The notes under the pieces were generated by a model that searched no databases, was not told the origin of the DNA, and worked only from the letters and a program-made list of their open reading frames with translations. A DNA stretch of 64,000 nucleotides. It comes from Eledone cirrhosa (taxonomy: Eukaryota). Position numbers and translations under genes: made by a program. This document shows positions 4,030-39,070 of this stretch, one piece after another. Position 1 is the first letter of the stretch. Every line of letters begins with the position of its first letter. The stretch spans positions 365,304,001-365,368,000 of the forward strand of contig OZ024741.1 of the NCBI GenBank assembly GCA_964016885.1. Direction: 5' to 3'.

Positions 4030-4030
4030 T

Positions 4031-9561: not shown

Positions 9562-9748
9562 GGGCGGTGGATTGGCAGTATCGGTAGAGGGTCGGACGCC
9601 ATGCTTTGACGTATAGAGTTACGGCCCTTGCCATTCTGAGTTCAAATCCCGCCGAGGTTAACTTTGCCTTTCATCCTTACGGGGTCGATAAAATAAAGTA
9701 CCAGTAATGCACTGGGTAATTGCTGGCCTTGTGCCAAAAGTAGAAACA
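9562..9748 (+). mobile_element. Young tRNA-derived SINE with 19-bp TSD
   Basis: A and B boxes and core are intact; ends CCTTGTGCCAAAAGTAGAAACA. TSD attattactattaataata at 9542-9560 and 9749-9767. Confidence 0.92.
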
Positions 9749-9797
9749 ATTATTACTATTAATAATACTACTAATATTATTATTATTATTATTATGC

Positions 9798-9887
<90 letters not shown>

Positions 9888-9888
9888 T
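9749..9888. repeat. (ATT)n abutting (AAT)n microsatellite; left edge of the retrotransposon nest
   Basis: Polarity switches at 9850/9851. Confidence 0.95.
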
Positions 9889-10253
9889 ATTTTAGGATAC
9901 AGACGGACAACAAATTAGAACACAATAGGCCTGACGTGGTGGTTTTGGACAAGGAAAATGATCGTGCCTGATTGTAGATGTAGCCTGCCCATTTGACACG
10001 AGAGTGCAAGAAAAAGAGAGGGAGAAAATAAACCGATACCAGGACTTAAATTGGGAGGTAAAAAGTATTTGGAACTGCCATGAAGTCAGAGTCGTCCCGA
10101 TTGTCATAGGCGCACTTGTCAAAGAGTTTCCAAGGATGGTTAAATAAAGTTAGTCCAGCCCCACTTTTTGGAACACTTCAAAAGGTAGTGGCTTGATGTT
10201 CATTTCAACAAACTTTCCAGTTAAATAACATCAATGACTGAGACTCAGAGAAC
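9889..10253 (+). mobile_element. 5'-truncated 3' fragment of a Dong/R4 LINE
   Basis: Colinear with ~24383-24820 (RPDVV..IVDVACPFD..EKINRY and the 3'UTR), with an internal deletion of ~58 bp. Flanked by (AAT)n. Confidence 0.9.
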
Positions 10254-10529
10254 AATAATAATAAAAATAATGATTTCATTTATTGGCCACAAGGGCCGAC
10301 ATATAGGGGACAATACAATTGACTGGGACAGTGGGGTTTTACAGAAAAATCCAGTAAACAATATGAATCACAATAACAAAGTAACAAGAAAATTACAACA
10401 AGAAAACATTCCCCAATAGGGGGGATGACCACCCAGGGTTCGCTCAGGTACCCCACCAATCCTGAACGACCCAACGCTTCGAGAGCACCCTGGAAGGGCA
10501 CCCCTCTCCTCCTCAAATTTACCTCCCTA

Positions 10530-13500
10530 CAGTCGCATGACCAGAGTAGGCCCACTCACACGGGCCATTCTCGCCACATTCACCCACCTTTCAGCAGATG
10601 TATTGGGGGGGGGGGGGCAGCACCTCTCACTCCACCCTGACCTTCCTTTCCAAGTGAAACTTGAAAAAGTTGATGAGGGATCGTCCACCATACAACCTCT
10701 TTCGCTACTGCCACCAGACAGAGGAAAATTGCCGCCCTTCCTGGCCAAAAGAAGGCGGCGGGTCGATTTTCACTATGGACTCGGCCGATAGCCGGATCCG
10801 TTCTACACGCGACAACAGCTGTTCAACATAACTCCACAAGTCAGTAATGCACGGACACTTGACGAGTGCGTGCAGAACGGTTTCGTCGCTCTGCGCGCAT
10901 CTTGGGCAAGTCCGTCTGACAGCTACTTCCGTGCCTGTAGAGTTTATCTCGAACCGGCAGTGCCCCCCAGTAGCACTGCCAAGCGAGGGATTTTTGGAAA
11001 TTATCCATTGTCCCCGGCTCGAAAGTCCTCCAGTACAGACTAGTTAGTTCGACTTCGTTGACTCGCAGAGCCTCTCCGAGTGCACGTCGCACTTGCCCAC
11101 CACTAATCCTCTATAGAACTCGAGAGTGGAAGTTCCACTGACCGCATTTCGCGCCTCGTAGAAGGCAGTGAGTGCCTGGCAACATTCCAGATTCCAGTCA
11201 CCCTATCTCGGTCTCTTCTTGACCCAGGACTGCAGCTCAGTCAAAGAAACGAGCTGCGGAAAGGCCGGTCTGACAAACGGCGACCACACCTATTCACCGT
11301 TTAGGCAGAAATATCTGGAGATGCCGCAGCCCCAGCGCGTGCCTGCGCATTATTAGCCACGGCATGCCCAGCCATCCACGTAGAGGGTACTGGCAGCAGA
11401 TGGAGCGCTTCACCAGCGGAACCTGACCCCTCCAAAAGAATTTGAAGAGGAGCCGCTCCAAGGTGGCGAGGCGCGAACGGGGACAAGGTACGACGGTTAG
11501 ACGGTAGTAGATGACGGACGCGATGTACACGTTCGCTACCGCCCCCGACCTTTCAGTGATAGGTTCACCCCAGCCCGTTTCTGGGTGAGACTGGCTACCC
11601 TGCCCGTCTCCTCGTCCCAATTCTTATCCACCTGGAGGTCTGGCCCGAACCATACCCCGAACAACTTTACCGATCCGTCCGTCCAATGCCTAACGACGCT
11701 GTTGGACGGCATGGCCTTGCCTCACCAGGTGCCGAGTTGCAAGCCCACCGATTTTCCGGGTTAAGTTTTGCTCCCGTCAACCTTTCATATTCCTCCAATA
11801 AGTTGCCGACCACCTCGATTTCTGAGGTGTCCGACGCCATCACGGTGATGTCGTCCGCATAAGCCGACACACCCTTTCCGCGTCCCGTTTCGAGCGGGAT
11901 GCCCTGCAACAGCTCCAGCTTCCGCAGTAAAGGCTCGAGAGTCAATACGTACAGAAGGGAAGAGAGAGGGCACCCTTGACGGACCGATCGGGAGACCTGA
12001 AACGGTTCCGAGAGGTGGCCATTAATTTTGACCATCGAGCAGGTGCCGCTGTGCATTGCAGCGATCCAGCTTCTGAAGACGGGACCGAAGCCAGCCGCCT
12101 TGAGGACAGCCTCCAGGTACCGATGGTCGACCCTATCGAATGCTTTCGTTTGATCTAAATTGATCAGATCCCCACCGAAGTCAGGTTTACACCCTACCCT
12201 CTCTATGATGTATTGCATTAGGTGGAGGTTGTCGTGTTTGGACCTGGTTGGGATTGCGCAAGTTTGCGCCTCCCCAACCAAATCCCCGACGACAAGCGCC
12301 AACCTCTTCGCTAACACCCTGGCCAAAATCTTAAACTCTGTGTTGAGCGGAGTTATGGGCCTGAAATTGTCTAATGTGTCCCTCTTGTTCTCGTCTTTCC
12401 TTATCAGCGTCACTATGCTCACAGAACTGGCAATGCTCCCGTTCTGCTGCCAGTTGCAGTAGAGGGCTTCGAGGAGATTGGAGAACAAGTCTGGCATATT
12501 TATGTAAAGCTTTTGGGCAGACCATCCAAACCGGGTGACCTGCGCCTCATGCAGCCGACAAGGACATCCTAAATATCGGCTGAAGTAATTGGCCTTTCGC
12601 AGCGCCCAGCGTCAGCCGTCGAGATTTGCGGCAAGCCATCGAGGTAGGGACTGAAGTCCGCCACCATCTCTGACCCGCCACTTCCCCCGAACAACCGAGC
12701 AAAATGTTGGCGAAAGCCCTCACACATCCGCTGGAATCGCTCAGCTCGTGTCCGTCTCGGTCCGTCAAAGACCGAATCGTGGTTTTATTACCACGCTGCG
12801 TCTCTGCCACGCGGGCCCATCGAACAGCTTTGGTTCCCTGGTTTCTCAGAGCACGCGCCTTAGCTCTGACAATGCAACCTTCGTGTTTCGCATAGAAGAA
12901 ATGGTCTAATGCCATTCTCGCCGCTAGCACATCAGTTGCAATGCCACTACCGATAGCCTCGTCTAACTTATCTACCAACTCCTCCTCCTTTCTATTTTTC
13001 TCTAACGCTACTTCTTTGCTAAACTCTATCGACATTACTCTAATCTCTCTTTTGAGAGCCCCCACCATCTATTGTTGACGACTCCCCCTGTCAACTTTTT
13101 TTAAATTAAATTGTCGACCTGGTCCCTGTAAGCCTTACGGGCCGGAAATGACATGTTTAGCTTCCAGTAACCAGGTCCTAACCTACGCGTCTTATCTAGG
13201 TTGACCATACAGAAAACAAACTAGTGATCTGAATAGGCGACCGTTTCAAAGCGTGGACAGCTTACACTGTTTCTGTCTATTTTCCTCATGAATATCCTGT
13301 CTATATACGATCTAGATGACCCTAGATGCGGTTAGCCCAGCTCCACACTGGCGCATTAGGGAAATCTAGTCGGTATCTGTCAGACAGTTGGAACTGGCTG
13401 ATCCGGTTCTTCAGGCTTTTGCACCCCCCGCTCCTATCGTATACTCCCACTCAGTCCCAGCGTGCGTCTAAGATGCCGTTCCAGTCCCACGCTAACAGTA

Positions 13501-13902
13501 AAGGGCGAGACGTACCCAGAAAGGCTTCCAGGCGTCTAAAGAAGTCCGGCCGTCCTGCCCCAGTAGGAGCATAGACAGCCACCAGTCTAAAGGCACCACC
13601 TTTGTTATTGTTCAAGTCCAGGACCACCAACTTCCCGTCCGGGTCCCGGAAGATCGACCTTACCTCGAGATCCAAGCTTTTCCTAAACAGCACTGCCACC
13701 CTCCCATTCCCGGCCGGATAACAGATGCAAAGATCTGATAGTCGTCGAGAATGGAGGCTAGTGCGCGCGTGTCGAAAATCCTGGTCTCGCTGACGGCAAT
13801 TACATCCATTTCTAGAGACCTGAGGTCGTTGAGCATGTGACCCTGCTTCCAGGACGATCCCAGGCCTCGAACATTTAAACATCCTACTCTTAATAAGGCC
13901 AT
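10530..13902 (-). pseudogene. Tx1 copy 1 ORF2 (APE endonuclease, RT, zinc finger), frameshifted
   Basis: ORF pieces: MALLRVGCLNVRGL, VYAPTG..WDWN, KAFDRVDH, RQGCPLS, YADD, WQCYWGALPVRDKL. Confidence 0.9.
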
Positions 13903-13934
13903 GTTGGCAGGTTAAAAAGAGAGAGAGGAAAGGT

Positions 13935-15892
13935 TTACTTACCTTCCGGGCTCTTGTGAAGATCGGGTTGTTCGACCGCCATAGTTGGTGGGGTTTCTTT
14001 TGGAACCCCTTTAAAAGTCTTGAAGTGGGTTTTACATTCGGGGTTCCCACGTCCCGAGGAAAGCTGTCTCGTATTTCTTTGTATAAATCGATCGACATTC
14101 GCACCACAACCAAATTTTCCGGCACGCGAAATGTGCTCGATTTAAAAATGTCCCCCTCTTTTTGTATATTTTCACTTCGTGCTATGAGGGCCATGAGTTC
14201 CTTGTTGGCCCTCCTGACGAGCACGAAGTTTTGTATGTTTTGTTGGTGTGATTTTATTTGTTTGCGTGGCTGTGGTGGTGATGGTTTTGGTGGTGTTGTT
14301 TCGGTTGTGTCTGTGTTTGTTGTGAGTGCGGTGTCTGTGGTTTCAGATGTTTGTGTGTGTATTTGTTCTTGCGTCTGTTTAGGTTCTTTGCGTTTGGGGG
14401 ATTCTGGTGATGGTGATGGTGGTGTTGATGTTGGTGTTATTGGAGAGATGTTTGCGTGGGTGGTGTCTGCTTTTTTTTTATTGTGGGGGATTTTGTGCTT
14501 TGTTGAGTTTTTTTTTTCTTTTTGCGTTTCCTTTTTTGTATTTTGGGGGATTTGGGTTTTCCCTCATCTTCACTACTGGTAGATGAGGGGTTTGTGTCTG
14601 TAAGTGTGTCTGTATGTATGTTTATGGTTTTATTGGTGTGTGTATTTTGGGGGGGAGGGGGAATTTAACAGCTTTCCTCGTTTCCCCCCTCGGTGGTCAA
14701 TGTTGGTGGTGGTCTTTCTATTGGTGTTGTTGTTGGTGGTTTTGCCAGTGCTGGTGTTGGTTGTGCTCCTCGCCCCGTCGTCGGCAGCAGTGGAGCCTTT
14801 CGACCCCTTGCCTCTTTCAGTAGTTGAGGGAAGAAGGCTCGCAAAGGGTTTTTTCCCCACAAACAAAACACTGAGGCTTTTTGCCTTCGGTCATAATGTG
14901 AATGACCGTCACATTCTGAAGGCGGATGTGGTCCGGGATTGTCTTCACATTCTCGGGCCTGATCTGGAGAAGGATCTCCAGGTCAACCCCGGACCAGTTC
15001 TCTCTGGCCGTTCTGGTCACTTCTATAGGGACGTTATCCGTCTCCTCCACAATCACACATCCCAGAAGCCACCACATATCAAGTCCTGGTGGGATTCTGA
15101 GAATGCAGAGACGGGCCGTTCTTTTTCCTATGTGGGAGGGGTACATTATGACCTTGCTGGTTTTGCAAGGAGTCATAGCGTGTTTCATAGTGAGGGCTTC
15201 TGACTTGAACAACACCGAAATGGTGCCGTACTGTCTTCTCTGATGTACCTCATCGCGACTTCGACAGCTTCTTGTGGGATTAAACTGCTCTTTTGGTTTG
15301 TGCTGAGATGCATCTATAATGCACCGTTCTGCGCTCCACTGCCTCAATAGCTTCTACCGGGACAGTTAATTTGGCCCAGGTTTGCTCTTGCTTGATGAGC
15401 TTCCATGCCTGGGCCAACTTTTCATATTTGTTTGAGAGGTCCATGTTGAAGCATGGCCTCTTTTTTGCTGCTGCCGTAGCGAAAGTGTTCTTCTTGTTTT
15501 CGTTGGGGGTGTCGTTGCCGTTGTCGTTGTTCTTGTTGGTTTTGTTGTTATCACTGTCGCTGTTATTATTGTTGTCTTTGTTGCCACCGTTGTTCTCGGT
15601 GCAGTTGGTATTGTTGCTGTTGATGTTGTCGCTACTTGTTTTCATGTTAGTGGTGTTGATATATTTTGTTGCATTTGTCATTTTTTTTTGTTATCTGTAT
15701 TTTCCTTGTCGCTGTTACTGTCATTTTTTTCAAAATTAGAGTTCTCATTGGTATCATTGGTGTCTTTGTTTACATTGTTTGTGGTGGTGTTTGTGTTATC
15801 AATTTGTGTTATTTCGCTGTAGCTCTCCTCTCAACTTCTACGTAGTTGTGGCACGACAGCAGACATATCGCTGGGAGGCGTGGCTCAGCCAT
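13935..15892 (-). pseudogene. Tx1 copy 1 ORF1 (Asn/Thr-rich N-terminus, putative RNA-binding core, zinc-knuckle remnant), frameshifted
   Basis: ATG at 15892 after an A-run. Pieces are homologous to ORF1 of the other copies (GTISVLFK, PPGLDMWWLLG, PQCFVCGE). Confidence 0.8.
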
Positions 15893-16086
15893 GTTTTTTT
15901 TTTTCTCTGAAATTTTTTAAAATGTAAAAAAATGTTCAAATATTTGGGCCAAAAGGCCCAAATATTATACTTTCCCCTTCACAGGGCTTATATCCCTTAC
16001 ACAACAAGAAATATTTAACAACAAATAATTTTAACAGGCAAATAAAGCGACTTACTGGGAGCGAGCAAAATACGTCCGATTAGACC

Positions 16087-16155
<69 letters not shown>
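16087..16155. repeat. (AAT)n spacer between Tx1 copies 1 and 2
   Basis: Pure tract joining the 5' end of copy 1 to the 3' end of copy 2. Confidence 0.98.
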
Positions 16156-16157
<2 letters not shown>

Positions 16158-16405
16158 TTTCTTTATTAACCACAAGGGTTTACATAAAGTAAACATTAAG
16201 GACAGTGCAGGACAATGCAGGACGGTACAAATGGGCATTTCTGCGTGTAAAAAACAAAAACTGAGGATGTAACAAAAAATAACAATGAAAAATTCCCCAA
16301 TAGGGGGGAGACTTCGGAGGGACATTTGTGGAGAGTGCCCAGTTAAAACCCACAATGACCCTGACCACCAAGGCAAGTGCCCTCTCCCAGTTTTCCACCT
16401 TTAAT

Positions 16406-19400
16406 TTACAGATATATACTCAGAGTAGGCCCATTCAGTCGGGCCATTCTTGCTTCTCTCACCCATCTTTCAACAAAATGCTGGGAAGAGAGCACTTCCC
16501 TCTCTACTCTGATTTTCCTTTTCAAATGAAATTTGAAAAAGTCAATCAGGGCATCACCGAAGAGGTAAGTGCTCGTCTTCAGCCCTTTCAAACGTGTCCA
16601 CCATACTATCTCTTTCGCCATGGCCACCAGACAGATAAAAACTGCCTGCCCTTCCCGGCTAAAGGAAGAGGGCAGGGCAATCCTCAGGATGGACTCAGAT
16701 GATAGCCGGATCCGTCCTACACGCGACAGCAGGTGTTCGACATAAACCCACAAGTCAGCAATTTTCGGACACTGGACGAGTGCGTGCAGGACGGTTTCGT
16801 CGCCCTCCGCGCATCTCGGACATGTCCGGCTGACGGCACCTCCATGCCTGTAGAGTTTATCCCGAACTGGCAAGGCTCCTCGGTAGCACTGCCAGGCCAG
16901 AGATTTCTGGAAGTTGTCCATAGGCCCCGGCCCGAAAGTTCTTCCGAAGAGATTGGCTAGTTGATTTTCGTCGACGCCTAGAGTTTCCCCAAGTATGTCG
17001 TCGCTCTTCCCCTCCACTAATCCTCTATAGAACGCCGAGGTGGAGTTTCCACCGATCACATTGCCCGATTGGTCGAGGGCTGTGAGCGCCTGAAGATATT
17101 CCAGTCTCCAGGCGCTCCCTCTCGGTCTTCGCTTGACCCAGGACTGCAGCTCCGTCAAGGAAACGAGCTGGGGAAATACGTGTCTAGCAAACGGCGACCA
17201 CACCTGATCACCGTCGAGGAAGAGGTGGAGATGTCGTAGCCTGCGCATCATCAGCCACGGCATGCCCAGCCCTCCACGTAGCGGGTGTTGACAACAGATG
17301 GACCGCCTGACCATCGGAGCACGTCCCTTCCACAAAAAGCGAAAGAGCAAACGCTCCAGCGCAATCAGGCGAGGCTTAGGACAAGGTACGACGGTCAGGC
17401 GGTAGCAGATGACAGACGCGATGTACGCGTTAGCCACCTCCGCTCGACCTTTCAGGGATAGCTTCCTCTCCGCCCATTTCTGGGTGAGAGAAGCCACCCT
17501 GCTCGTCACCTCGTCCCGGTTTTTGTCCGTCTGGAGGTCCGGACCGAACCAGACCCCTAGCAGTTTAACCGGTCCGTCCGTCCAGCGTCCGACGACGCTG
17601 TTGGACGGCATGGACCTGCCTCTCCAGGTGCCGAGCTGCAGGCCCACTGACTTTTCCTGGTTGATCATTGCTCCTGTCACCGCTTCGTATTCTCTTAGTG
17701 TAGTGCCGATCGCCTCGATGTGTTTGGCGTTCGACACCACTACGGTGACATCGTCCGCATATGCTGACACGGATCTTCCGCATCCTAGTTCGCGCGGGAC
17801 TCCCCTCAACGTCTCCAGTTTGTGCAGTAATGGCTCGAGAGTCAATACGTACAAGAGGGACGAGAGGGGACATCCTTGGCGGACCGAGCGCATGATGTTG
17901 AACGGTTCCGACAGGTGACCGTTCACTCTCACCACAGAGCAGATGTCGCTGTGCATGGCAGCGATCCAGCCTCTGAAGACGGGCCCAAAGCCAGCCGCCC
18001 TCAGGACTGCCGCTAGGTAACGATGGTCGACCCTATCGAAAGCTTTCGACTGATCTAAATTGATCAAGGACCCACCCGTGCCAGGTTCCTTAGCTACCCT
18101 CTCTATGATGTATCGCATGAGGTGGAGGTTGTCGTGGATTGATCTGTCGGGAATGGCGCATGTCTGCGCCTCTCCCACCAGACCACCAACGACAAGCGCC
18201 AACCTCTTTGCTAGCACCTTGGCCAAAATCTTGAACTCTGTGTTTAGCAGAGTTATGGGCCGGAAATTATCTATGTTATCCCCCTTGTTCGGATCCTTTC
18301 TCAGCAGTGCCACCGCTCCTCGGCTCACAGAACTGGGAATTCTCCCGTTCTGTTGCCAGTTGCAGTAGACGTCCGCCAAGAGGCCTCCGAACAAGTCTGG
18401 CATCTGTACGTAAAGTTCATAGGGCAGACCATCCAAACCAGGCGATTTACCCCTTGTGCAGCCAGTCATTGCCTCCCTTACTTCAGCGGCTGTTATCGGC
18501 TTTTCGCAACGCTTCGCCTCAGTGGCCGAGAGCCGCGGCAGTCCGTCGAGGTAGACACTAAAGTCCATCCCTCTACCCGGCCCACCGCTGCCCCCGAACA
18601 GCTGAGCGAAGTGTCGCTGAAAAGCTTCACACATTTTCCCGGGATCGAGTAGCATGCGCCCGTCGTGGTCCACCAAAGACCGGATCGTGGCTTTGTTGCC
18701 ACGACGCGCCTCCGCCACTCGGGCCCATTGAACGGCTTTCGTCCCCTCGTGTCTGAGAGCACGCACCCTTGCTCTGACAACGCACCCTTCGTGCTTTGCA
18801 TTGAAGAATTGGTCAAGGGCCAATTTCGCCGCAAGCACGTCGGTCGCAACGCCTTTGCTAAGCGCCTCGTCTAATTTTCTAACTAGTTCTCCCTCTGCTC
18901 TATTTTTCTCTATTGCTAAAGCCTTACTAAACCTAATCGATTCTATTCTAATCGCTCTTTTCAGAGCAAACCACCACTTGTTGTTGACGATGGCCCCCGT
19001 CAACGCCCGCTTAACTAGTTCGCTAATCCGGTCTCTGTAGGCCTTGCGCGCTGGTAAGGACGCGTTTAGCTTCCAGTAGCCGGGTCCTCGTCTATGAAGC
19101 CTATCTAAGTCAAGCACACAGATCACGAATTTGTGGTCCGTGTAGTTGACTATCTTGAATTGTGGACAGCCTATGCTAGACCTATCTATTTCCCTACAAA
19201 ATACTCTATCTAGATATGATCTGGATGATCCTATGCGATTTGTCCAAGTCCACATTGGCACATTCGGGAAATCCAATCGGTACCTGTCTGACAGTTCAAA
19301 ACGCCTGAGCAGGTTGGTGAGGCTCTTGCACCCTCCACTCCTATCCGCTAATCCCACACAGTCCCAGCGTGCATCTAAGATCCCGTTCCAGTCGCCCACT

Positions 19401-19813
19401 AACACTAAAGAGCGGGACGTTCCAAGAAAGGTCTCCAGACGCCGGAAGAAATCAGGCCGCCCTGCTCCTGTCGGGGCATAGACGGCCACTAGCCTGAAAG
19501 CTTGCCCGTCTCCGCTGGTCACGTCCAGCACCACCAGCTTACCCTCTGGGTCCAGGAAGATGGCCCGTATGGCAAGATCCAAACCTCTCCGAAAAAGCAC
19601 AGCAACTCCTCCACCCGATCCAGGACGGCTGGGAGATGCGTACACATCGTAGCCGCCGAAGATCGGTGCGAAGGCCCGTGCTTCGGAGATTCTGGTCTCG
19701 CTGATGGCCACTACATCTATGTTTAGTGACCTGAGGTCGTTGAGCAGGTGACCCTGCTTCCATGACGACCCCAAGCCACGCGCATTTATGCTGCCTATTC
19801 TGAGTGAGGTCAT
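16406..19813 (-). CDS. Tx1/L1-type ORF2p: APE endonuclease + reverse transcriptase + C-terminal CCHC zinc finger (1135 aa)
   Basis: APE motifs INARGL, SET, VYAP, GDWN, YLDR, TDH; RT motifs KSPGLDG, FRPITLLN, KAFDRVDH, RQGCPLS, YADD; zinc finger CPRC-x-ETVLH-x-C. Confidence 0.96.
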   Translation of the reverse strand: MTSLRIGSINARGLGSSWKQGHLLNDLRSLNIDVVAISETRISEARAFAPIFGGYDVYASPSRPGSGGGVAVLFRRGLDLAIRAIFLDPEGKLVVLDVTSGDGQAFRLVAVYAPTGAGRPDFFRRLETFLGTSRSLVLVGDWNGILDARWDCVGLADRSGGCKSLTNLLRRFELSDRYRLDFPNVPMWTWTNRIGSSRSYLDRVFCREIDRSSIGCPQFKIVNYTDHKFVICVLDLDRLHRRGPGYWKLNASLPARKAYRDRISELVKRALTGAIVNNKWWFALKRAIRIESIRFSKALAIEKNRAEGELVRKLDEALSKGVATDVLAAKLALDQFFNAKHEGCVVRARVRALRHEGTKAVQWARVAEARRGNKATIRSLVDHDGRMLLDPGKMCEAFQRHFAQLFGGSGGPGRGMDFSVYLDGLPRLSATEAKRCEKPITAAEVREAMTGCTRGKSPGLDGLPYELYVQMPDLFGGLLADVYCNWQQNGRIPSSVSRGAVALLRKDPNKGDNIDNFRPITLLNTEFKILAKVLAKRLALVVGGLVGEAQTCAIPDRSIHDNLHLMRYIIERVAKEPGTGGSLINLDQSKAFDRVDHRYLAAVLRAAGFGPVFRGWIAAMHSDICSVVRVNGHLSEPFNIMRSVRQGCPLSSLLYVLTLEPLLHKLETLRGVPRELGCGRSVSAYADDVTVVVSNAKHIEAIGTTLREYEAVTGAMINQEKSVGLQLGTWRGRSMPSNSVVGRWTDGPVKLLGVWFGPDLQTDKNRDEVTSRVASLTQKWAERKLSLKGRAEVANAYIASVICYRLTVVPCPKPRLIALERLLFRFLWKGRAPMVRRSICCQHPLRGGLGMPWLMMRRLRHLHLFLDGDQVWSPFARHVFPQLVSLTELQSWVKRRPRGSAWRLEYLQALTALDQSGNVIGGNSTSAFYRGLVEGKSDDILGETLGVDENQLANLFGRTFGPGPMDNFQKSLAWQCYRGALPVRDKLYRHGGAVSRTCPRCAEGDETVLHALVQCPKIADLWVYVEHLLSRVGRIRLSSESILRIALPSSFSREGQAVFICLVAMAKEIVWWTRLKGLKTSTYLFGDALIDFFKFHLKRKIRVEREVLSSQHFVERWVREARMARLNGPTLSIYL

Positions 19814-19848
19814 GTTTAAAATAGAGTGGAAAAGATGGGAAAGACCAC

Positions 19849-21950: not shown

Positions 21951-22184
21951 GTTGTTTTTTTTGTTTAAAATACATATTGGGTACAAAACCCCAATAAGCA
22001 GTTATTTAACCCCTAAGGGCCAAATAACGGGCAGAAAGACCCCTCTCACGAGGAGGAGGGTGTTTTTGTCTACAAGTTGGTCTAAGTTTTAAACAATTTA
22101 CAATTGTTATAGCGTTCAAAATTTACAGTACCTTACAGAGCCAAGCCTCCGTCAACCATAGCATTCAATAATAATAATAATAAT

Positions 22185-24820: not shown

Positions 24821-24847
24821 AATAATAATAATAATAATAATAATAAT

Positions 24848-25028
24848 TGTTTCTACTTTAGGCACAAGGCCAGCAATTACTCAGTGCATTACTGGTACTT
24901 TATTTTATCGACCCCGTAAGGATGAAAGGTAAAGTTAACCTCGGCGGGATTTGAACTTAGATCGTAAAGGGACGTAACTATGCTGGAAAGCATGGCGTCC
25001 GACCCTCTACTGATACTGCCAATTCACC
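24848..25028 (-). mobile_element. tRNA-derived SINE inserted in (ATT)n between Dong and Tx1 copy 3
   Basis: Reverse complement of the 9562 SINE, with (AAT)n tracts on both sides. Confidence 0.92.
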
Positions 25029-25074
<46 letters not shown>

Positions 25075-25082
25075 GTAATAAT

Positions 25083-28000: not shown

Positions 28001-30380
28001 GACTCGGTCCCTGTAAGCCTTACGTGCCGGAAATGGCATGTTCAGCTTCCAGTAACCCGGTACAAACCTACGCGTTTTATTTAGGTAGACCGTACAGATC
28101 AAAAATTTGTGATCTGAATAGGCGACCGTTTTAAAAAGTGGACAGCCCACACTATTTCTGTCTATTTTCCTAATGAAGATCCTGTCTATATACGATCTAG
28201 ATGACCCCATTCGGTTGGTCCATGTCCATACTGGCACATTGGGGAAATCTAGTCGATACCTTTCAGACAGTTGGAACTGGCTGAGTAGGTGCTTTAGGCT
28301 TTTGCACCCCCCGCTCCTATCGGCTACTCCCACACAATCCCAGCGTGCGTCTAAGATGCCATTCCAGTCCCCCGCTAACAGTAAAGGGCGAGACGTACCC
28401 AGAAAGGTCTCCAGGCGCCTAAAGAAGTCAGGTCGTCCGGCCCCTGTAGGGGCGTAGACGGCCAGCAGTCTAAAGGCACCACCTTCGCTACTGCTCACAT
28501 CCAAGACCACCAACTTACCGTCCGGGTCCCGGAAGATCGACCTTACCTTGAGATCCAGTCCTTTCCTGAACAGCACTGCCCCCCCCCCCCCCCCCACCAT
28601 TCCCGGCCTGCTAACAGATGCGAAGATCTGATAGTCGTCGAAAATGGGGGCTAGTGCGCGCGTGTCGGAAATTCTGGTATCGCTTACAGCAATCACATCC
28701 ATTTCCAGCGACCTTAGGTCGTTGAGCAGGCGACCCTGCTTCCAGGATGACCCCAGGCCGCGAACATTTAAACTTCCTACTCTTAATATGGCCATATTGG
28801 TAAGCTAAGAGAGAGAGAGGGAAGGTTTACTTACCTCCCGGGTCTTGTGAAGGTCGGGTGGTTCGACCTCCATGGTTGGTGGAGTTTCTTTTGGGAACCT
28901 CTTTAAAAGTCTTGATGTGGGTTTCACATTCGGGGTTCCCACGTCTTGAGGAAAGCTCTCTAGAATTTCTTTGAAGGAATTGAGTGACAATCGGACCAGA
29001 AGCAAATCTTCTGGCACGCATAATGCGCTCATTTCAAAAATCTCCCCCTCTGTTTGAATCTCCTCGCTTCGCGCTAAGAGGGCCATCAGTTTATCGTTGG
29101 CCCTTCTGACAAGCACGAAGTTTTTAACATTTTGTTGGTGTGGTTTTATTTGTTTTCGTTTTGGTGAAGGTGGTGGCGATGGTTTTGGTGGTGTTGTTTC
29201 GGGTATGTCTATGTTTGTTGTAGGTGTGGTGTCTGCAATTTCAGGTATTTGTGTGTTTATTTGTACTTGTGTTTGTTTAGGTTGTTTGCGTTTCGGGGAT
29301 TGTGGAGGTGGAGTCGATGTTGCTGATGGTGCTGATGTTATTGGGGAAGTGTTTGCGTTAGTGGTGTCTGTATTTTTTGTTGTGTGTGTTTTTGTGTTTG
29401 GTTGGGGCTTTTTTTTTGTGAGTTTTCTCTGTTTTTTTGCACTTTTGGGTTTTCCTTCATCTTCGCTGCTGGAAGACAAAGGGTCTGTATCTGTGAGTGT
29501 CTCTGTGTCTGTGTGTGCGTTTATTTTTTTTTGTCTATGTGTATAATTGGGGGGGGGGTAGGGGGAGTGGGAGAGCTTTCCTCGTTTTCTCCTTGGATTG
29601 GTTTTGGTGTTGGTGGTGATCCGGCTGCTTTTGATGTTGGTGTCCGTGTTTTTGTTGATGTTGTTTTTGGTGGTGGTGGTGCAGATTTCCGTGCTGACAC
29701 TGGCGTTGTCAACAAAGGGGGTTTGCGACCCCCTGCATTTTTGCGCTGAGGGCAGAAGGCTTGAAGATGCGTTGCTTCCCCGCAAACGAAGCAGCGTGGC
29801 CTTCTTCCGTCAATCATTAGTTGGATTGTTGTCCCGTCCTGCAGGCGGGCAAAATCGTGGATGTTATTCATATCCTCTGGTTTCATTTGGAGAAGAATCT
29901 CCAAATCCATTCCGGACCAGTCCTCTCTCTCTGTCCTTTTGATGTCCAGGAGGGTGGTGTCTGTCCCCTCCTCGATTACGCATCCCAGCAGCCACCATAT
30001 GTTCATTCCTGGTGGGATGCTGGGAATGCGTACCTTCACTGTCCTTTTATCCATATAGGACGGATGCATGATAATGCGTTCCGTTCTGCAGGGGGTCACC
30101 GAGTGCTTAATAGCGAGGGCCTCGGTTTTGAACAGTACCGAGATGGTACCGAACTGTTTGCCTCTTGCTTTGTACTCTATGTTACTTCCGATGTACTCCA
30201 AAGCAGCCTCTACCTCTGCTTGGCTCGCAAGTTCCACTTTTCGTGTCTGCACCGAAATACATCGAAAGAGCACCGTCCTCCTTTGCATGGCCGCTATTGC
30301 CTCGTCCGGGATGGTCAGGTTTGCCCAGGACTTCTCCCGTTTAATTAGCCTCCACGCTTTGGCCAACTGTTCGTCTTTAT
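25083..30380 (-). mobile_element. Tx1 copy 3 (subfamily A), lacking 5'UTR and ORF1 N-terminus
   Basis: 3' end CCTTGTGGCTAATAAAGGAAATC|ATT. ORF2 in three pieces (28795-27920, 27815-26232, 26225-25368). ORF1 pieces contain CFVCGEATHLQAFC. Confidence 0.93.
25368..28795 (-). pseudogene. Tx1 copy 3 ORF2, frameshifted
   Basis: APE, RT (YADD) and CPRC..H..C motifs distributed over three ORFs. Confidence 0.9.
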
Positions 30381-30399
30381 CGCCAACTGTTCGTCTTTA

Positions 30400-33025
30400 G
30401 GATAAAACGGAACAAAATAAAGCCAATGTCAAAATAAAGCCAATGTCAAATGATAAAATCTCATACCGGATCGGCCGTCACCCCGGTCAAAAAGGGCCGC
30501 GTCCGTCAAAGAGGAACCAGACTTGGATTGAAAAATCAGTTCAAACCTTCCCATGAATTCGGAGCTGGAGACCTCCCGTAACCGGAATACTCCTACTGAT
30601 GGCCCGCCATGCTCACCACCAAGAAATCCAAAGAAAAAGAGAGAAAATGGTCAAGGGAAGACAATAAAGAAGTCCTTGAGGCTTTCTACACTCCCATATA
30701 CTACCCATCAAATAGATCGAATATAGAACAGACATATATCAACTGGAAAAAGAAACATCCCCAAAACAGAGACTATATTGATAGTAACAAACTAGTTAAT
30801 ATACGAAGAAATATTGTTAAGAGAAAGTTACTAAGTTATAGTAATTGATCAGATCAAGCAATTAGCGCAAAGTCAGCGAAGGGAAATTGAAACATGTGTC
30901 AGAGAAAACGAGGTAAATTGTAACACTTCAAATCCCAGGGTTGGGCCGGAATCACTGACAGCAAAACAAATTAAAGAAAGGATCGAAAAAGTGGAAGGAG
31001 TGCATGATCAAGATGAAACTCAAAATGAAAACAATGAGATCGCCAATGACAAAGAAATGAATGGAAATGAACTCGCCAACTTGAAGGATGAAATTATGAT
31101 CGAATGGATGAAAATGAAAGAATCTAACATGGGGGAACGAGACACTCCCCCTAAGACCCAGAACTCCAAAAACATTATTTAACATAACTCTCAAAAACAT
31201 TATCATCACAAATAAACTAAACATTACTGATCTAAATCACCTGTACTATGCATCGACTAAAGTCACCACTCACTTATGTGGAGTGAAAAGGAAAAAAAAA
31301 ACAAAGGAATTCCCACAAAAAATCTACTTGGCAAGAGAACATCAATCGCCAAATAAGCCTTCTCCGATCTGACAGAAATGTTAACAAACTACAAAGTAGG
31401 TGAACATGTTAAACAAACTAAACTTAGAAAATTGAAAAGAAAATACAGTATAAAATCAACAAGTGACATAGACATGCTGATAGAAACAATCAAGCAAAAA
31501 GAGTCGGCCAAAGCTGCTCGTATAAGGCGCTTTGAATAACGATCTAGATTCTATAAGGACAATAATATGTTCAAAAACAACAAAAGAAACTTATACAGAA
31601 AAATTGGCAAGTCAACAATAACTGCTAAATCAATACCACCCAAGGAGGAAGTGCAAGAATTGTGCGAAAATTTCTGGACCGAAGAAAAAGTTCATAATAG
31701 ATAGATAATGGATAGATAGACACAGGAAAGATACAGCTCACCTTGAGGAACAAATATGGGAAAATATAACAGTTGATCATGTGCGTTTAGCACTTAGAAA
31801 ATCCATCAAATGGAAATCCCCAGGGAAAGACAAAATACCAAATTTTTGGATAAATGACTTCACAGAGCCTCATCAGCTGTTAGCCCAACTTTACAATGAA
31901 ATGGTTACGGAGCCAGAAAAGATAGCATCATGGCTAATTAACAGCATTACATTCCTACTTCCGAAGAATGATGAGACAAACATTACAGACCGATAACTTG
32001 CTTGACCACAATGTATAACATTTTAACATCAGTCCTAAGTGAATATACATATGACCACCTGATAACAAATGATCTATTTTCCAATGAGCAGAAAGGGTGT
32101 AAACGAGGTTCATATAGCTGTAAGGATAAGCTTTTGGTTAACAAAATGATACTGGAAGATTGTCATAATAGACACACAAATCTATCGATTGCTTGGATAG
32201 ATTACAAAAAAGCATTCGATAGTTTGTCACACGGATTGAAAAGTGTTTAGAGATTTTCAAAATATCTCTCGTTGTCAGTAAGTTCCTGTCATTCAGTATG
32301 AAAAACGACACTCGTTTTGAATAGTGAAAAAAATCACTGGAAGCTGGAGAAGTTAATATTAATTGTGGAATTTTTCAGGGTGACTCTTTATCACCGCTTT
32401 TATTCTGTATCGCACTTTTACCATTAAGTAAAATGCTCAATGAAACAAAACATGGATATAAAGTCTATGACAAAACCATTAATCACTTTTTCTACACGGA
32501 TGACCTGAAACTATTTGCAAAAAATGATGAGCAATTGCAAGGGCTATTTTCCACTGTGAAACAGTTCAGTGATATTAAAATGGAGTTTGGACTAGATAAA
32601 TGCGCCAAAGCCACGTTCACCAGAGGAAAGTTGTTGAAAAGTTCAGAGATTAATCTTGATCGGGGGAACGTGATAAGAGAACTTGATCAAGAGGAAACGT
32701 ACAAATATCTAGGTGTTTGTGAAGGAGACGGAATCAAGCACTCGACAATGAGGGAAAGGATAAGGAAGGAATGTTACCGCAGAGTAAGAGCAATCTTAAG
32801 AACGGAATTGAATGCAAGGAATAAGATCGATGCCATAAACACGCTTGCCATACCAGTAGTAACCTACAGTTACAATGTCATCAACTGGTCAAGCAGAGAG
32901 ATATGTAGGCTCGATACAAAAATTAGAAAATTCTTAACCATGCACAGAATGCATCACCCTAAGGCAGATACAGATAGAATATATCTCCCTAGGAAAGAGG
33001 GAGGACATGGATTAATCTAATTAGG
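30400..33025 (+). mobile_element. Degenerate second Dong/R4-family LINE retaining its N-terminus but missing its 3' end
   Basis: ORF pieces RKWSREDNKEVLEAFY, WKSPGKDKI, EQKGC, DYKKAFDS, FYTDDLKLF, YKYLG, HHPKADTDRIYLPRKEGG. Clearly diverged from the 22185 copy. Confidence 0.88.
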
Positions 33026-36000
33026 AAAGTGTCCGTCTTCAACCCTTTCAACCTTGTCCACCACACAATTTCTTTCACCATGGCCACCTGGCAGAGGAAA
33101 ATTGCCTGCCCTTACTCCTCTTTAAATGAGGATGGCGGGGATGTCTTCACAATGGACTCAGTCGATAACAGGATCCGTCCTACACGCGACAGCAGCTGTT
33201 CGACATAGCTCCATAAGTCAGCGATCCTCGGGCACTGAACGAGTGCTTGCAGGACGGTTTCGACGCCCTACGCGCATCTCGGACAGGCTCGGCTGACAGC
33301 ACCTCCGTGCCTGTAGAGGTTATCTCGAACCGGCAACGCTCCCCGGTAGCACTGCCAGGCCAGGTATTTCTGGAAGTTGTCCATATGCCCCAGTCTGAAA
33401 ATTCTCTTGAAGAGAGCGTACTGCTGATCGTCTTCGATGCCCAGGGTCTCCCCGAGAATGTCGTCGCACTTTCCCTCCACTAGCCCTCTATAGAACGCCG
33501 AGTTGGATGTTCCACCGATACTAGTGCCCAGCTGGTAGAGGGCTGTGAGTGCTTGGAGACATTCCAGCTTCCAAGCGCTATCACTCGGTCTTTTCCTGAT
33601 CCAGGACTGCAACTCTGTCAAGGAGACGAGCTGGGGAAAAGCGCGTCTGGCAAACGGCGACCACACCTGTTCACCGTCAAGGAAGCACCAGAGATGTCGC
33701 AGCCTCAGCGCATGTTTGCGCATCATCAGCCACGGCATGCCTAGTTCTTCACGCAACAGGTGTTGACAGCAAATGGATCGTCTGACCATGGGAGCACGTC
33801 CCTTCCACAAATAGCGGAAGAGAAGGCGCTCCATTTTGGTCATAGTTGGGCGGGGGCAACGTACGACGGTCAGGCGGTAACAGATGACGGACGCTATGTA
33901 CGTATTCACCACCTCCGCCCGACCTTTCAGAGACTGCCTCCTCTCGGCTCATTTCTGGGTGAGAGAAGCCACCCTGCTCGTCACCTCGCTCCAGTTTTTG
34001 TCCATCTGGAGGTCCGGTCCGAACCAGACCCCGAGCAATTTAACCGGTCCTTCCGTCCAGCGCCCCACGACATGTCGGACGGCATGGACTTGCCTCTCCA
34101 GGTGCCGCGTTGCAAGTCCACCGAATTTTCCTGGTTTATCTTTGCTCCTGTCACCGCTTCATATTCGCCGAGAGCAGTGCCGAGCATCTAGACGTGTTTG
34201 GTGCACGACACCACCAAGGTGACGTCGTCGGCGTACACTGGCATGGATCTCCCGCATCTCAGTTCGCGTGGGACCCCCCTCATCGTCTCCAGTTTGTGCA
34301 GTAACAGATCGAGGGCCAGTACGTACAAGAGGGACGAGAGGAGGCAACCCAGACGACCGAGCGCATGATGCTGAAAGGCTGCAACAGGTGACCACTCACC
34401 CTCACAATCGAGTAGATGTCGCTGGTCATCGCAGCAATCCAGCCCCCAAAAATGGGCCCGAAGCCGGCGGCCTCGAGGACCGCAGCCAGGTACCGATGGT
34501 CGACCCTATCAAATGCTTTAGATTGATCCAAGTTGATCAGGGCCCCACCCGTGCCAGGTTCCTTAACCACCCTCTCTATGATGTATCGCATGAGATGGAG
34601 GTTGTCGTGGATGGATTTGTCCGGAATGGCGCACCCTGCGCCTCTCCCACCAGATCACCGACGACAAGCGCCAATCTCTTTGCTAACACCTTGGCCAAAA
34701 TCTTAAACTCTGCGTTTAGCAGAGTTATGGGGCTGAAGTTGTCTATAACGTCCCTCTTGTTCGGGTCTTTTCTCAGCAGCGCCACTGCTCTCCGGCTCAC
34801 AAAACTGGGAATGCTCCCGTACTGCTGCCAGTTGCAGTAGACATCTGCCAAGAGGTCGCCGAACAAGTCTGGTATATAGGCATAAAGCTCGTAGGGCAAA
34901 CCATCCAAACCTGGTAATTTACCCTTCGTGCAGTCAGACATCTCTTCCCGTATTTCATCTGCTGTTATGGGTTTTTAGCAGCACTGCGCTGCGTTCGTCG
35001 AGAGCCGCGGCAGTCCATCGAGTTATGCACCGAAGTCCATACTCCGATCCGGCCCACCGCCGCTACCGAACAATTAAGCAAATTGCTGTTGAAAAGCCGC
35101 ACATATCTGCTCAGGTTCGAGCAACATGCGCCCGTTTTGATCAGGCAAAGAACGAATTGTGGACTTGTTGCCGCGTCGCGTCTCTACCACCCGGGCCCAT
35201 TGAACGGCTTTCGTCCCCTCGTGTCTTAGAGCACGCGCACTAGCTCTGACAACCCAGCCTTCATGCTTTGCTTTGAAGAATTGGTCGAGTGCCAATCTCG
35301 CCGCAAGCACGTCGGTTGCGATGCCTGTCCTAAACGCCTCTTCTAGCTTTCTATCTAACTCTCCGTCTACCCTATTTTCCTCTATCACTACTCCTTTGCT
35401 AAACCTTATCGATTCTACTCTAATAGTCCTTTTCAGGGTAAACCACCACCTGTTGTTGACGATCGCACCCGTCAACATACGCTTAACCAAATCGCTAATC
35501 CGGTCTCTGTAAACTTTGCGCGCTGGGAACGACGCGTTCAGCTTCCAGTAGCCGGGCCTTTGCCTATGGAGTCTATCTAAGTCAACTTCACAGATCACAA
35601 ATTTGTGGCCCGTGTAGTCGACTACACTAGCCTTATTTGTTTCCCTACAGAATACCCTATCTAAATACGATCTGGATGATCCGATGTGGTCTGCCCATGT
35701 CCACATTGGCACATTCGGATAATCCAGTCTATACCTGTCAGAGAGTTCAAAACGTCTGAGCAGGTTGTTGAGGCTTTTACACTCTCTTCTCTGTCTACTA
35801 ACCACACATAATCCCAGCGTGCATCTAAGATACCGTTCCAGTCGCCCACTAACACTAAAGAGCGGGACGTTCCAAGAAACGTCTCTAGACGTCTGAAGAA
35901 ATCTGGCCGTCCTGCCCCTGTTGGGGCGTAGACGGCTACTAGCCTGAAAGCAGTGCTTTCACTGCCGGTCACGTCCAGCACCACCGACTTACCTTCTGGG

Positions 36001-37113
36001 TCCAGGTAGATGGCGCGTATTGCGATATCCAAGCCTCGCCGAAAAAGCACAGCAACTCCACCCCTCGATCCTGGACGACTGGGAGATACGTATACATCGT
36101 AGCCGCCGAAGATCGGCGCGAAGGCTCGTGCTTCGGAGATTCTGGTCTCGCTGATGGCTACCACATCAATGTTTAGTGACCTGAGATCGTCCAGCAGGTG
36201 ACCCTGCTTCCAAGATGACCCCAGGTCACGTACATTTATAATGCCTATTCTAAGTACGGCCATGCTGGATGAGGAAATGGGGTAAGTGAGAAAGGATCAC
36301 TTACTCTGGTCGTGTGGGGAAGGGACAGTAGAACCGTCTCTTCGGCTGGTCATGGGTGTCTCCAGGATAATATCATTATATATTGTGGATTGGGAGTATG
36401 GGTAGAGGGTCGGACGCCATGCTTTGACGTATAGAGTTACGGCCCTTGCCATTCTGAGTTCAAATCCCGCCAAGGTTAACTTTGCCTTTCATCCTGAATT
36501 TTTGGATAAAATAAAGTACCAGTAATGCACTGGGTAATTGATGGCCTTGTGCCTAACGTAGAAACAATTATATATTCTTTTGGAGAGTGACCCCTGAAAT
36601 TCCCAGATGCGTTGGGAAATATTTGCTTTAATTGTTTATAGTCTTCCAGTTTAATTTCGACAATTGTAATGTTCTTGGTGTTGGTGGGGTGTGGTAATTT
36701 AAGTCTGTAATGTCTGTGTTGTTTTATATGTTCCATTAATCCTTTGTGTGTGATATTTATGGCTGTGTACTTTTTTTGGTGCGTGTTGATTTTGTTGCAG
36801 TTTTCTTGTTGCTGTTGGATGTGTGTACTTTGTTGTGTTTGCGATGTTAGTGTTTTGGTGATGCTGGTGGTGGTGGTGTGGTTTTTGTTGGTGGTGATGC
36901 TTGTGGTTGTGATGTTGATGGTAGTGGTGTTGCTGCAAGTCTCCTTGCAACCTTTACCCCTCTTTTTTGCCTTGGCTTTTGGAGGGAGAAACTCTGGTGT
37001 TTTTGCGTTTGTTCTTTTTGTAGACAACCGTTTTACACTCCTCAGCCACTCATACTCCATATCCGACTGTGAGAGGTCAGGGAGGGCTATGAGTTCTACC
37101 TTCTTATTTGTAT

Positions 37114-37145
<32 letters not shown>

Positions 37146-38666
37146 GAAGCCTGGTCTGCCGTTCCTGGCCCAGGTGCAGCTAGTGCAGCTGTTTCTGTTA
37201 CTGCAGTTTTTGTTGTCCGTGGCTTTGGTGTGGGTGCCACGGACGTTGTCTTCCTACTCTCTGTAGAAGGTCCCGACTTTTTCGCTGAATGCTCTGTGTC
37301 TGATGGCAGCGGTTTCGGTGTTGGAAGGAGGGGGACTTTAACCTTTGTTATTTTCTGTAAGCAGTGGGCCCTGAGGTGAGACTTCGATCCATTTTTGAAG
37401 CGTTTTGGGCGCCTTCCTTCCACAGATATGGGAAGTTGGGAGCCATTCCTGGTCGGTTTGGATGAGCATCTCCATTCCAATACCGGACCAGTCCTCTCTC
37501 CCCAACTTCTGTACCTGCAGAATGGTTGTTCTATCCTCGATTCCCGCAAGAACAGACACGACCAGCCAAGACACGGGTACATAGGGCGGGACTGGGTTAC
37601 CCTGATCATTGCAATTTTTTTTCCCGCAGTAAAACGGGACTAACGCTATGTCACCGCTCCGTAGGGTCCCCAGGGAGTGCAATTTGCTTCCTGGGTGGTA
37701 ACAAAAAGTACGTCCACAGTAGCATATTTCTTGCCACGGGTGATGTGGGTTTTCCGTGCCCACACAGTTCCCAAGGCCTTCTGGATTTGAGCCTCCGAGG
37801 CTCTCTCCACACGACGCGATTCGTGGCAATCGTGCGGTATGAGACTGTGCGTCGCTCTTGTTCCTCCAGGAAGTCGGTTGGTGGTTTCAAGGACACTGAA
37901 AATTCAGTTTTGGTTACCATGTGTCTTGCGACCGCCATCTCCTCCTCTGTGATCAGGACTGTTTCTATGTTGCAAGCCACCTTTGCAAAAGAGATGGTCC
38001 CTTTTTCAGTGGCATCATTTTTGCCGCTGCTACTACTGTTACTGGTCTTGTTGCTGGTGCTGTTGCTGTTACCACTGCTACAAATGATCTTGTTGGTATT
38101 GATGCTGTTATCACTGTAGCAGTTGGTTGTATCTTTGGTGCCGCCGTTCTTGTTGTTCTCGGTCCAATTTGTATTGTTGCTGTTTGTGTTGTCGCTATTT
38201 TCATGTTAGTGGTGTTTATATGGTTGTTGCATTTGTTATCATTTTTTCTGTTGTCTATGTTTTGGTTGTCGCTGTTACTTTTGTGGTTGGTATGGTCATT
38301 TTTTTCAAAATTAGTGTTCTCAGTTTTGTTGTCATTGCTGTCTTGTTCACGTTGTTTGTGGTGGTGTTTGTTGTATCAATTTCTGTGTTCTCCGTAACCC
38401 TCCTCTCAACTTTTACGTCTTTGTCACACGACAGCAGACATATCATGGGTGTGTGGCTCAGCCATGTTTTATTTTTTTCGCCAATTTTTAAATGTAAAAA
38501 GTTCAAATATTTGGGACAAAAGGCCCAAATATTATACTTTCCCCTTCACAGAGCAAAGTCCAAGGCTTAAATTCCTTATACAACAACAAACATTTAACAA
38601 TAAATAATTTATGACAGGTAAAAAAAGAGACTTAGGAGTATGAGCAAAAAGACATCCGATCAGACC
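33026..38666 (-). mobile_element. Tx1 copy 4, degenerate, 3' end deleted, chimeric A/B
   Basis: 5' end GGTCTGATCGGATGT after (ATT)n; ORF1 ATG at 38465; ORF2 ATG at 36263 (MAVLRIGIINVRDL); many frameshifts. Confidence 0.92.
36385..36566 (+). mobile_element. tRNA-derived SINE inserted in Tx1 copy 4 ORF1
   Basis: Same family as the 9562 SINE. TSD attatatatt at 36375-36384 and 36567-36576. Confidence 0.9.
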
Positions 38667-38693
38667 AATGATAATAATAATAATAATAATAAT

Positions 38694-39070
38694 GGTTTCA
38701 TTATTGGCCATAAGGGTTAACATGAAGAAAAACATTACAGACGGCACAGAACGGTACAGGACGATACAAAGTGTTTTTTAGCCGTGTAAAAAAGGTTATA
38801 ACAAAACAAAAAAAAAAAAAATAAATAAATAAAAAAAAACCCACAGAAACGTGTAAAAAAAAATTAAAAAATTCAAACAACAAAAATTTCCCAATAGGGG
38901 GAAACCTCCGAGCGTCACTCCTAATGAAAACAACACAAAAGACCAAGGCCTCCCTGACCACCGGGGCAAGCGCCCTCTCTCAGACCTCCCACTCCTCAGT
39001 CTACAGGCGCATATTCAGAGCGGGCCCGTTAATTCGGACCAGACTCGCCTCTTTCACACACCTTCTCAAC
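38694..39070 (-). mobile_element. Tx1 copy 5, 3'-terminal fragment
   Basis: ORF2 C-terminal codons plus 3'UTR; ends CCTTATGGCCAATAATGAAACC|ATT. The 5' side runs into (TG)n. Confidence 0.85.

Follow-up and report, generated by a model that had tools for sequence, protein, structure and literature searches.

Tx1 elements are long interspersed nuclear elements (LINEs) with an apurinic/apyrimidinic-type endonuclease (APE), and their published targets are (TC)n, (TTC)n, (TTCC)n and (TTTC)n repeats, U2 and transposons; a family is regarded as microsatellite-specific when the target repeat is present in more than 20% of its flanks genome-wide (PMC4494074). Dong elements, which encode a restriction-like endonuclease (RLE), target the TAA repeat (PMC3812793), and a hepatitis delta virus-like ribozyme at the 5' end is a trait of the R4/Dong elements (PMC3774820). 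Here, we analyzed a 64-kb window of the Eledone cirrhosa genome (contig OZ024741.1, positions 365,304,001 to 365,368,000), in which Tx1-like LINEs, Dong-like LINEs and tRNA-type short interspersed nuclear elements (SINEs) form a nest of approximately 29.5 kb; all coordinates are positions within this window. The nest is probably a stack that arose from the repeated insertion of these three kinds of element into one tract, with Tx1 entering at C/ATTAT (the slash marks the junction) and Dong entering from the other strand.

Self-BLAST, tblastn and direct reading confirmed the nest with corrections, and revealed five Tx1-like copies (T1 to T5) on the minus strand and three Dong-like copies (D1 to D3) on the plus strand. 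An earlier sequence-only reading had proposed the order SINE(+), D1(+), T1(-), T2(-), D2(+), SINE(-), T3(-), D3(+), T4(-), T5(-), which we found to be correct in order and strand, although it had overlooked one extra SINE inside T4. All eight AAT/ATT tracts of at least six units in the window fall at element ends, between 9775 and 38691, and none was present in the remaining ~34 kb. Tracts were missing at the D3 ends and at the truncated 5' end of T5. Seven of the ten Tx1 ends are intact (5' of T1, T2 and T4; 3' of T1, T2, T3 and T5), and all of them abut ATT on the sense strand, as had been claimed for Tx1 polarity; the truncated 5' end of T5 abuts (TG)n. Tract polarity was also not uniform, since it flips at 9851/9852, with (ATT)n on the left and (AAT)n on the right of the plus strand, and the first SINE lies in the part of opposite polarity. 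The segment 9749-9887, where (ATT)n is directly followed by (AAT)n on one strand, is a near-palindromic tract.

The second open reading frame (ORF2) of T2 is open and showed Pfam matches to APE (PF03372), reverse transcriptase (RT; PF00078) and zf-RVT (PF13966). As in the L1/Tx1 group, an N-terminal APE with the catalytic residues N, E, Y, D, N, D and H is followed by the RT and a C-terminal zinc motif, and the closest solved structure was human L1 ORF2 (E 5e-51), with R2 at E 3e-21. The ORF1 of the Tx1 clade carries RNA-binding domains and a CCHC knuckle. T2 ORF1 contains a single CCHC knuckle with a weak Pfam match (E 0.099); its Atlas look-alikes (0.88-0.93) carry zf-CCHC and ZCCHC3 RNA-binding domain families, and the resemblance to ZCCHC3-type proteins is weak. 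In an RT tree (FastTree, 65 sequences, D3 left out, 20 of 80 metagenome loci included), the window clade grouped with the fish protein P0021, which bears ZCCHC3-type domains (support 0.83). Because the tree contains no named Tx1, "Tx1-like" is a fair label. A gene model of O. bimaculoides (P0240) carries a piece 56-82% identical to the nest ORF2s, which, together with the type of the SINE, points to an octopus as the likely host. The metagenome relatives are distant (25-43%), with no AAT/ATT run of at least 14 bases among the repeats listed for 80 loci, and viral contigs gave no match by protein search or by 3'-end pattern. The AlphaFold model of ORF2 was unusable, with a mean predicted local distance difference test score of 48 and a predicted template modelling score of 0.31. 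The Tx1-like copies form the subfamily pairs T1+T3 and T2+T4, and inter-copy differences are enriched at codon position 3. Two non-homologous types of 5' untranslated region (UTR) are present (local scores: T1/T4, 303; T2/T1, 34; T2/T4, 26). The 5' ends of T1 (15528-16113) and T4 (38085-38693) are 79% alike though their ORF2s belong to different pairs, and the 5' end of T2 is of the other type; the shared end may represent what we term 5' module swapping.

In D2, a single ORF encodes an RT (Pfam) followed by CCHC and PD-(D/E)xK motifs read in translation, and its best solved relatives were R2 proteins. Homology to its closest homologue, P0119, begins at residue ~310, three bases past an (AAT)6 tract; both D1 and D2 are truncated at the 5' end and begin directly after (AAT)n. 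Two traits of the Dong/R4 clade were found, in this RT-CCHC-PD-(D/E)xK ORF and in (TAA)n at both junctions of two of the three copies (D1 and D2). D3 shares 30-55% amino acid identity with D2 and belongs to a different family, and it has no tract at either end, so the proposal of (TAA)n at all three Dong copies was rejected for D3 and retained for the other two. The Rfam search gave no match in the window, in which the 5' ends are gone from all three Dong-like copies. At ~30400 and 33020, D3 is bounded by joints produced by deletion or rearrangement, and later deletions would have removed three Tx1 ends together with both ends of D3. Tandem duplications of 20 bp and 17 bp, which resemble a repair scar, flank the T3/D3 joint (30362-30450).

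Sister Tx1 arrays were found in CAXXMW01, a GTDB record labelled as a bacterial metagenome-assembled genome and species representative, which supplied 40 of 48 loci (L081-L118, L121 and L124). Its contigs of up to 94 kb hold LINE arrays amid microsatellite-bearing DNA and are likely mis-binned DNA of an animal host. The sister families (P0003/P0005/P0015 group), whose ORF2s are 40-43% identical to the nest Tx1, lie head-to-tail every 6.4-6.9 kb, and each has its own spacer of 16-17 bp at every joint (11-17 bp across families). The same spacer also occurs in unique DNA at array starts (L084 and L103) and at one end (L084), which indicates that it is a re-used target-site duplication (TSD). Their 3'UTRs end with a C-rich run and with the putative stem-loop also seen at the nest ends. 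ATTATT follows none of 104 sister 3' ends (overlapping, redundant loci), and five ATT units were found in none of the 48 loci. We therefore rejected the idea that stacking requires a microsatellite, as the sister families stack through duplicated 16-17-bp targets without ATT. The 5' flank of T2, a C followed by 18 bp of ATT, is built like the sister spacers. On this comparison, stacking appears to be a habit of the Tx1 lineage that the nest clade would practise with an ATT target. The earlier claim that each insertion regenerates the target needs a corresponding change: targets would multiply through the TSD, which also builds the sister arrays.

The tRNA-type SINE of the nest, which we take to resemble the octopus OK-type SINEs, provided target sites outside the LINE junctions; ARAGORN found nothing in the window. 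Fifteen SINE 3' ends were examined, and TSDs were present at both ends in eight, with lengths of 10-19 bp where definable. In all eight, the 5' copy, which represents the original target, begins with ATTAT (background frequency, 0.0028), and six of these eight sites lie outside microsatellites and ATT tracts. A C precedes ATTAT at five of six independent SINE sites, against a background of 37 of 193 (p=0.0013). The claim that Tx1 targets (ATT)n agrees with element ends lying in tracts, but the SINE insertions point to a short C/ATTAT motif with tail pairing and not to (ATT)n as such. Two SINEs are stacked in tandem (58986 and 59201; 58986-59412, plus strand), and a single 16-18-bp TSD occurs there in three copies.

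We also found the 3' ends of the SINE and Tx1 copies to be alike: in both, a CUUGU loop within a short putative stem is followed by letters like AGAAAYC and by ATT. With a matrix built from 11 SINE ends (tail excluded), the termini of T1, T2 and T3 outscored all 127,793 background positions and that of T5 was 17th (16 above), whereas the Dong ends had 14,214 and 93,797 positions above them; with a reverse matrix from T2 and T5, 13 of the 15 SINE ends ranked 23rd or better. A hand-chosen stem of 3-4 bp, 72% paired, had eight cells changed on both sides, which was reached in 0 of 500 shuffles. Additionally, the tail of one SINE matched the sister Tx1 3'UTR (37 nt, 86%, E 1e-5 in 137 kb). These results show that the SINE has its 3' terminus in common with the Tx1 copies. 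Targeting could be as described with the SINE driven by a different LINE, either an unseen Tx1 family or an RTE or CR1 element with an ATT tail. The SINE stem has GGC/GCC as in the sister lineage while the nest copies have CC/GG, and tail-matched TSDs occur in RTE SINEs (PMC6007223), yet the reciprocal matrix ranks link the SINE and Tx1 ends, the 3' ends of two further LINEs compared within the window (D1 and D2) do not match, and a LINE at 46708-47744, which terminates in (AT)n, is absent from the top 30 matches. We consider a different driver unlikely, though it is the strongest of the alternatives.

Slightly less credible is a Tx1-like family strictly specific for (ATT)n microsatellites, as Kibi and Koshi are for (TC)n and (TTC)n, with the looser SINE sites left to another driver or to relaxed trans-mobilisation. 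Strict specificity is consistent with the pure ATT flanks at three of three intact LINE 5' ends, with the passage of the best-supported 5' joints in read contigs through ATT, and with the observation that SINEU-1 as well as SINEU-2 prefers the Tx1-Mar target less strongly than SINEU-3 does (PMC4494074). However, six of the eight SINE sites with a Tx1-type 3' end are lone ATTAT motifs, and the sister families have non-repeat targets. The hairpin loop of the nest endonuclease, moreover, can be aligned gap-free with its human L1 counterpart, whereas in most relatives the loop is longer by two residues; an L1-length loop may fit a short target motif, a weak point.

An improbable alternative is that ATT is merely a 3' tail and that the tandems arose by template jumping, by read-through or by passive piling in a neutral AT-rich region. 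Four of the seven intact Tx1 ends are indeed 3' ends, each 5' flank could derive from some tail, and at three broken element ends there is no tract. Several observations speak for a target nevertheless. The three intact Tx1 5' ends, which represent two unrelated 5'UTR types, abut at least 18 bp of ATT, two truncated Dong 5' ends also lie in a tract, and a junction of this kind recurs in read contigs; the sequence-only reading was upheld in taking ATT to be more than a tail. Neighbouring Tx1 copies differ in subfamily and age, as ORF2 has no in-frame stop in T2, one in T3, six in T4 and eight in T1. T2, the youngest, sits 5' of T1, the oldest, amid older or unrelated elements, so the ATT flank of T1 is unlikely to have begun as the tail of T2, and T2 likely entered a tract already present at the T1 5' end. 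A one-step concatemer is likewise disfavoured, because it would give copies of a single age. The rest of the window contains neither tracts of at least six units nor further copies of Tx1 or Dong, short tracts were struck rather than the kilobases of element between them, and the SINE 5' TSD copies place ATTAT in the target itself. The C in the T2 5' flank is the first base of D2, which suggests that D2 inserted before T2. We rejected the head-to-head (AAT)6 on its own as proof of targeting, since what was once a joint between two Tx1 copies could have been entered by a SINE and a Dong; the argument therefore rests on the age order and the SINE TSDs.

Contigs from four of 24 listed sequencing runs (X1, X4, X7 and X10) were compared with the T2/D2 region (16156-24826). 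Among the 12 listed of 402 joins, at least six lead from a T2-family 5' end through an AAT tract to another Tx1 3' end, and they link 22185 back to 16158-16163 (a Tx1 3' end in C, the ATT tract and the T2-family 5' end). Their depths were 242, 131 and 125 in X1 (single pieces, 6-10) and 223, 171 and 115 in X7 (single pieces, 12-28), two studies with two organism labels. The junction between the T2-family 5' end and ATT thus recurs in two studies. The two best-supported joints of X1 (depths 433 and 363) are of another kind, in which a ~93-bp Tx1 3' piece (16158-16250) adjoins another Tx1 3' end; this piece may represent truncated copies that lie in tails, or else a subfamily whose end is doubled.

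Several points weigh against repeated targeted insertion and a shared SINE driver. The LINE junctions all belong to a single nest and so lack independence, T5 abuts (TG)n at its truncated 5' end and shows no duplication of ATT, and AAT tracts are missing from D3. The joins give no fraction or denominator, 7,462 loose ends fall outside the listed joins, junction coverage in X4 and X10 is too thin, the use of short k-mers biases the joins towards short spacers, and the window may itself derive from X1. There is no clear TSD at seven of the 15 SINE ends, the C preceding ATTAT may be part of the TSD in two SINEs, and TSD starts that match the tail are, as mentioned, also known from RTE-driven SINEs (PMC6007223). 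For the shared terminus, four high-scoring ends, judged by eye to be old SINEs, were omitted from the matrix background, and three of them would outrank T1 if retained. Pairwise shuffle tests of the SINE and Tx1 ends were modest (13-240 of 2000), RNAalifold gave no consensus fold for these ends, and the hand-chosen stem is still 61% paired when slid by +1. Sister 3'UTR matches below E 0.03 were obtained for just three of eight SINEs (the others at E 0.006 and 0.02), with the remaining five at E 0.28 or above.

The notion that the nest is a piRNA-cluster-like host trap producing RNA antisense to the other clade, prompted by two oppositely oriented clades in one array, is the least plausible of all, as target polarity fully explains the orientation and the sequence requires no host role.

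Under repeated insertion at C/ATTAT, a TSD starting with ATTAT would place the first nick on the opposite strand, after ATAAT and before a purine. The nicked primer would pair with the (AUU)n tail of the RNA, as TTTT pairs with polyA in L1, whose target consensus is TTTT/AA (PMC1950540). The Tx1-like endonuclease would thus nick the AAT strand of the tract, and Dong, whose sense strand carries (TAA)n, would cut the ATT strand; given target-primed reverse transcription, nicks on opposite strands would lead to opposite orientations. Each insertion would leave two fresh targets, a 14-19-bp duplication and its own 3' end reading C/ATTATT. A Tx1 of the nest's lineage would mobilise the SINE, and SINE and Tx1 tails would seed the (ATT)n tracts later used by Dong.

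The wider scenario is one that we hold only tentatively, at somewhat less than even chances: an ATTAT-cutting Tx1 lineage drives the abundant octopus tRNA-type SINE, the tails sow (ATT)n genome-wide, Dong colonises the other strand, and the lineage stacks on itself while its 16-18-bp target shifts from family to family and one 3' stem-loop is kept. SINEs make up 11.6% of the O. vulgaris assembly; of 900 SINE families with recent activity, 893 have no classification, and both L1-Tx1 and Dong-R4 have recently been active as well (PMC13282606). For a cephalopod-type SINE that is very common, the nest would supply a candidate driver, and the five-letter TSD signature and the short 3' motif make this idea computable on existing assemblies. 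It would also extend the range of target-preferring Tx1 elements by a target of ATT type and provide a natural pair of unrelated endonucleases that act on one duplex from opposite strands, and the sister families with different targets form a series for studying shifts of APE specificity.

Table 1. Elements and tracts of the nest, with positions within the 64-kb window.
Feature	Position	Strand	Description
TSD, 5' copy	9542..9560	+	19-bp target duplication of the first SINE; begins ATTAT
First SINE	9562..9748	+	tRNA-type SINE
(ATT)n tract	9749..9851	+	(ATT)n on plus; left end degenerate
(AAT)12	9852..9887	+	polarity flip point; 5' flank of D1
D1	9888..10250	+	decayed, 5'-truncated Dong-like 3' fragment; 86% identity to D2
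(AAT)n tract	10251..10271	+	degenerate; separates D1 3' end from T1 3' end
T1	10272..16086	-	full-length Tx1-like LINE, most decayed; ORF2 with 8 stops and ~8 one-base deletions
(AAT)23	16087..16155	+	T1 5' flank and T2 3' tail/TSD
T2	16156..22166	-	full-length Tx1-like LINE; open ORF2 16406-19819; ORF1 from 21950 in two frames
(AAT)6	22167..22184	+	18 bp; head-to-head T2 5' end and truncated D2 5' end; C/(ATT)6 on Tx1 sense strand
D2	22185..24820	+	Dong-like RLE LINE; open frame, 5'-truncated
(AAT)9	24821..24847	+	joins D2 3' end and SINE 3' end
SINE	24848..25028	-	ATT on both sides; polarity as Tx1
(AAT)18	25029..25082	+	SINE 5' flank and T3 tail
T3	25083..30399	-	Tx1-like LINE; 5' end lost within ORF1; ORF2 with 1 stop
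D3	30400..33020	+	decayed Dong-like copy of another family than D2; both ends lost; no AAT
T4	33021..38666	-	Tx1-like LINE; lacks its 3' end; retains an intact 5' end homologous to the T1 5' end; ORF2 with 6 stops
SINE within T4	36385..36566	+	TSD of 10-12 bp beginning ATTAT; outside microsatellite
(AAT)9-like tract	38667..38693	+	T4 5' flank and T5 tail
T5	38694..39071	-	Tx1-like LINE 3' fragment; (TG)n (39072-39154) adjoins its truncated 5' end

Other elements were present in the window. The LINE at 46708-47744 (plus strand), presumably RTE-like, is a 5'-truncated RT-encoding element with (AT)n on both sides and a Pfam match to DUF6451 (E 4e-5); it is possibly a third microsatellite-targeting family. 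The region 44880-46137 (minus strand) holds the GC-rich 3' part of another RLE-type LINE without a Pfam match, which we take to be CRE-like. Inverted and direct repeats of 244-611 bp with 91-97% identity lie at 47802-49961 and 62444-63225, with a further inverted pair at 4026-5051, and these may be related to miniature inverted-repeat transposable elements.

Our literature search, whose coverage excluded Repbase and the figure and supplement targets of further Tx1 families in PMC4494074, found no ATT-targeting Tx1. A search for a LINE partner of the octopus SINE, with Ohshima and Okada 1994 outside its coverage, also found none; the available text of a SINE/LINE review (PMC3747384) never names octopus, and Tx1 is named in its text only.

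Upon comparison with known systems, the Dong-like copies of the nest showed nothing new: Dong of B. mori, DongAg and DongBg share with D1 and D2 the single ORF with RT, CCHC and PD-(D/E)xK and the (TAA)n at both ends, truncated 5' ends included (PMC3812793, PMC3774820). The claimed convergence of APE and RLE elements on one target stood, in that both kinds lie at ATT/AAT tracts, but it already has a precedent in Keno and Utopia, an APE Tx1 and an RLE element that evolved one target in parallel; these have a single site and 3' flank in common within U2 small nuclear RNA (snRNA) genes, whereas the nest has a simple repeat with the clades facing opposite ways (PMC4640811). TRAS1 and SART1 are both R1-clade APE elements, in contrast to the enzymes of the nest, which have unrelated folds. 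The two are oppositely oriented in telomeric repeats. Like the elements of the nest, they are two families in one simple repeat, that of silkworm telomeres (PMC1919474).

The SINE signature related to RTE is similar to that of the nest SINE, as the TSD start matches a microsatellite-like 3' tail, but it was reported for the first nucleotide and for RTE, whereas the nest SINE shows five letters and would have a driver of the L1/Tx1 group (PMC6007223). Tx1-Mar and SINEU of crocodilians are likewise a Tx1-driven SINE system with tandem insertions that sandwich a TSD; SINEU has snRNA heads, polyA and no 3' terminus in common with the LINE (stated for SINEU-1) (PMC4494074). In contrast, the nest SINE is tRNA-type, with a short 3' end shared with Tx1 and an (ATT)n tail. 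Finally, Kibi, Koshi and the crocodilian (TTCC)n/(TTTC)n Tx1 resemble the nest Tx1 as APE-type two-ORF LINEs in microsatellites with fixed polarity (PMC4494074, PMC3812793). The tracts of the nest consist of ATT and not of the Kibi/Koshi-type units (TC)n, (TTC)n, (TTCC)n or (TTTC)n, and the nest Tx1 differs from Kibi and Koshi in its ATT-type target, which is not pyrimidine-only, in its apparent preference at the level of a motif and in a SINE with a shared 3' end.

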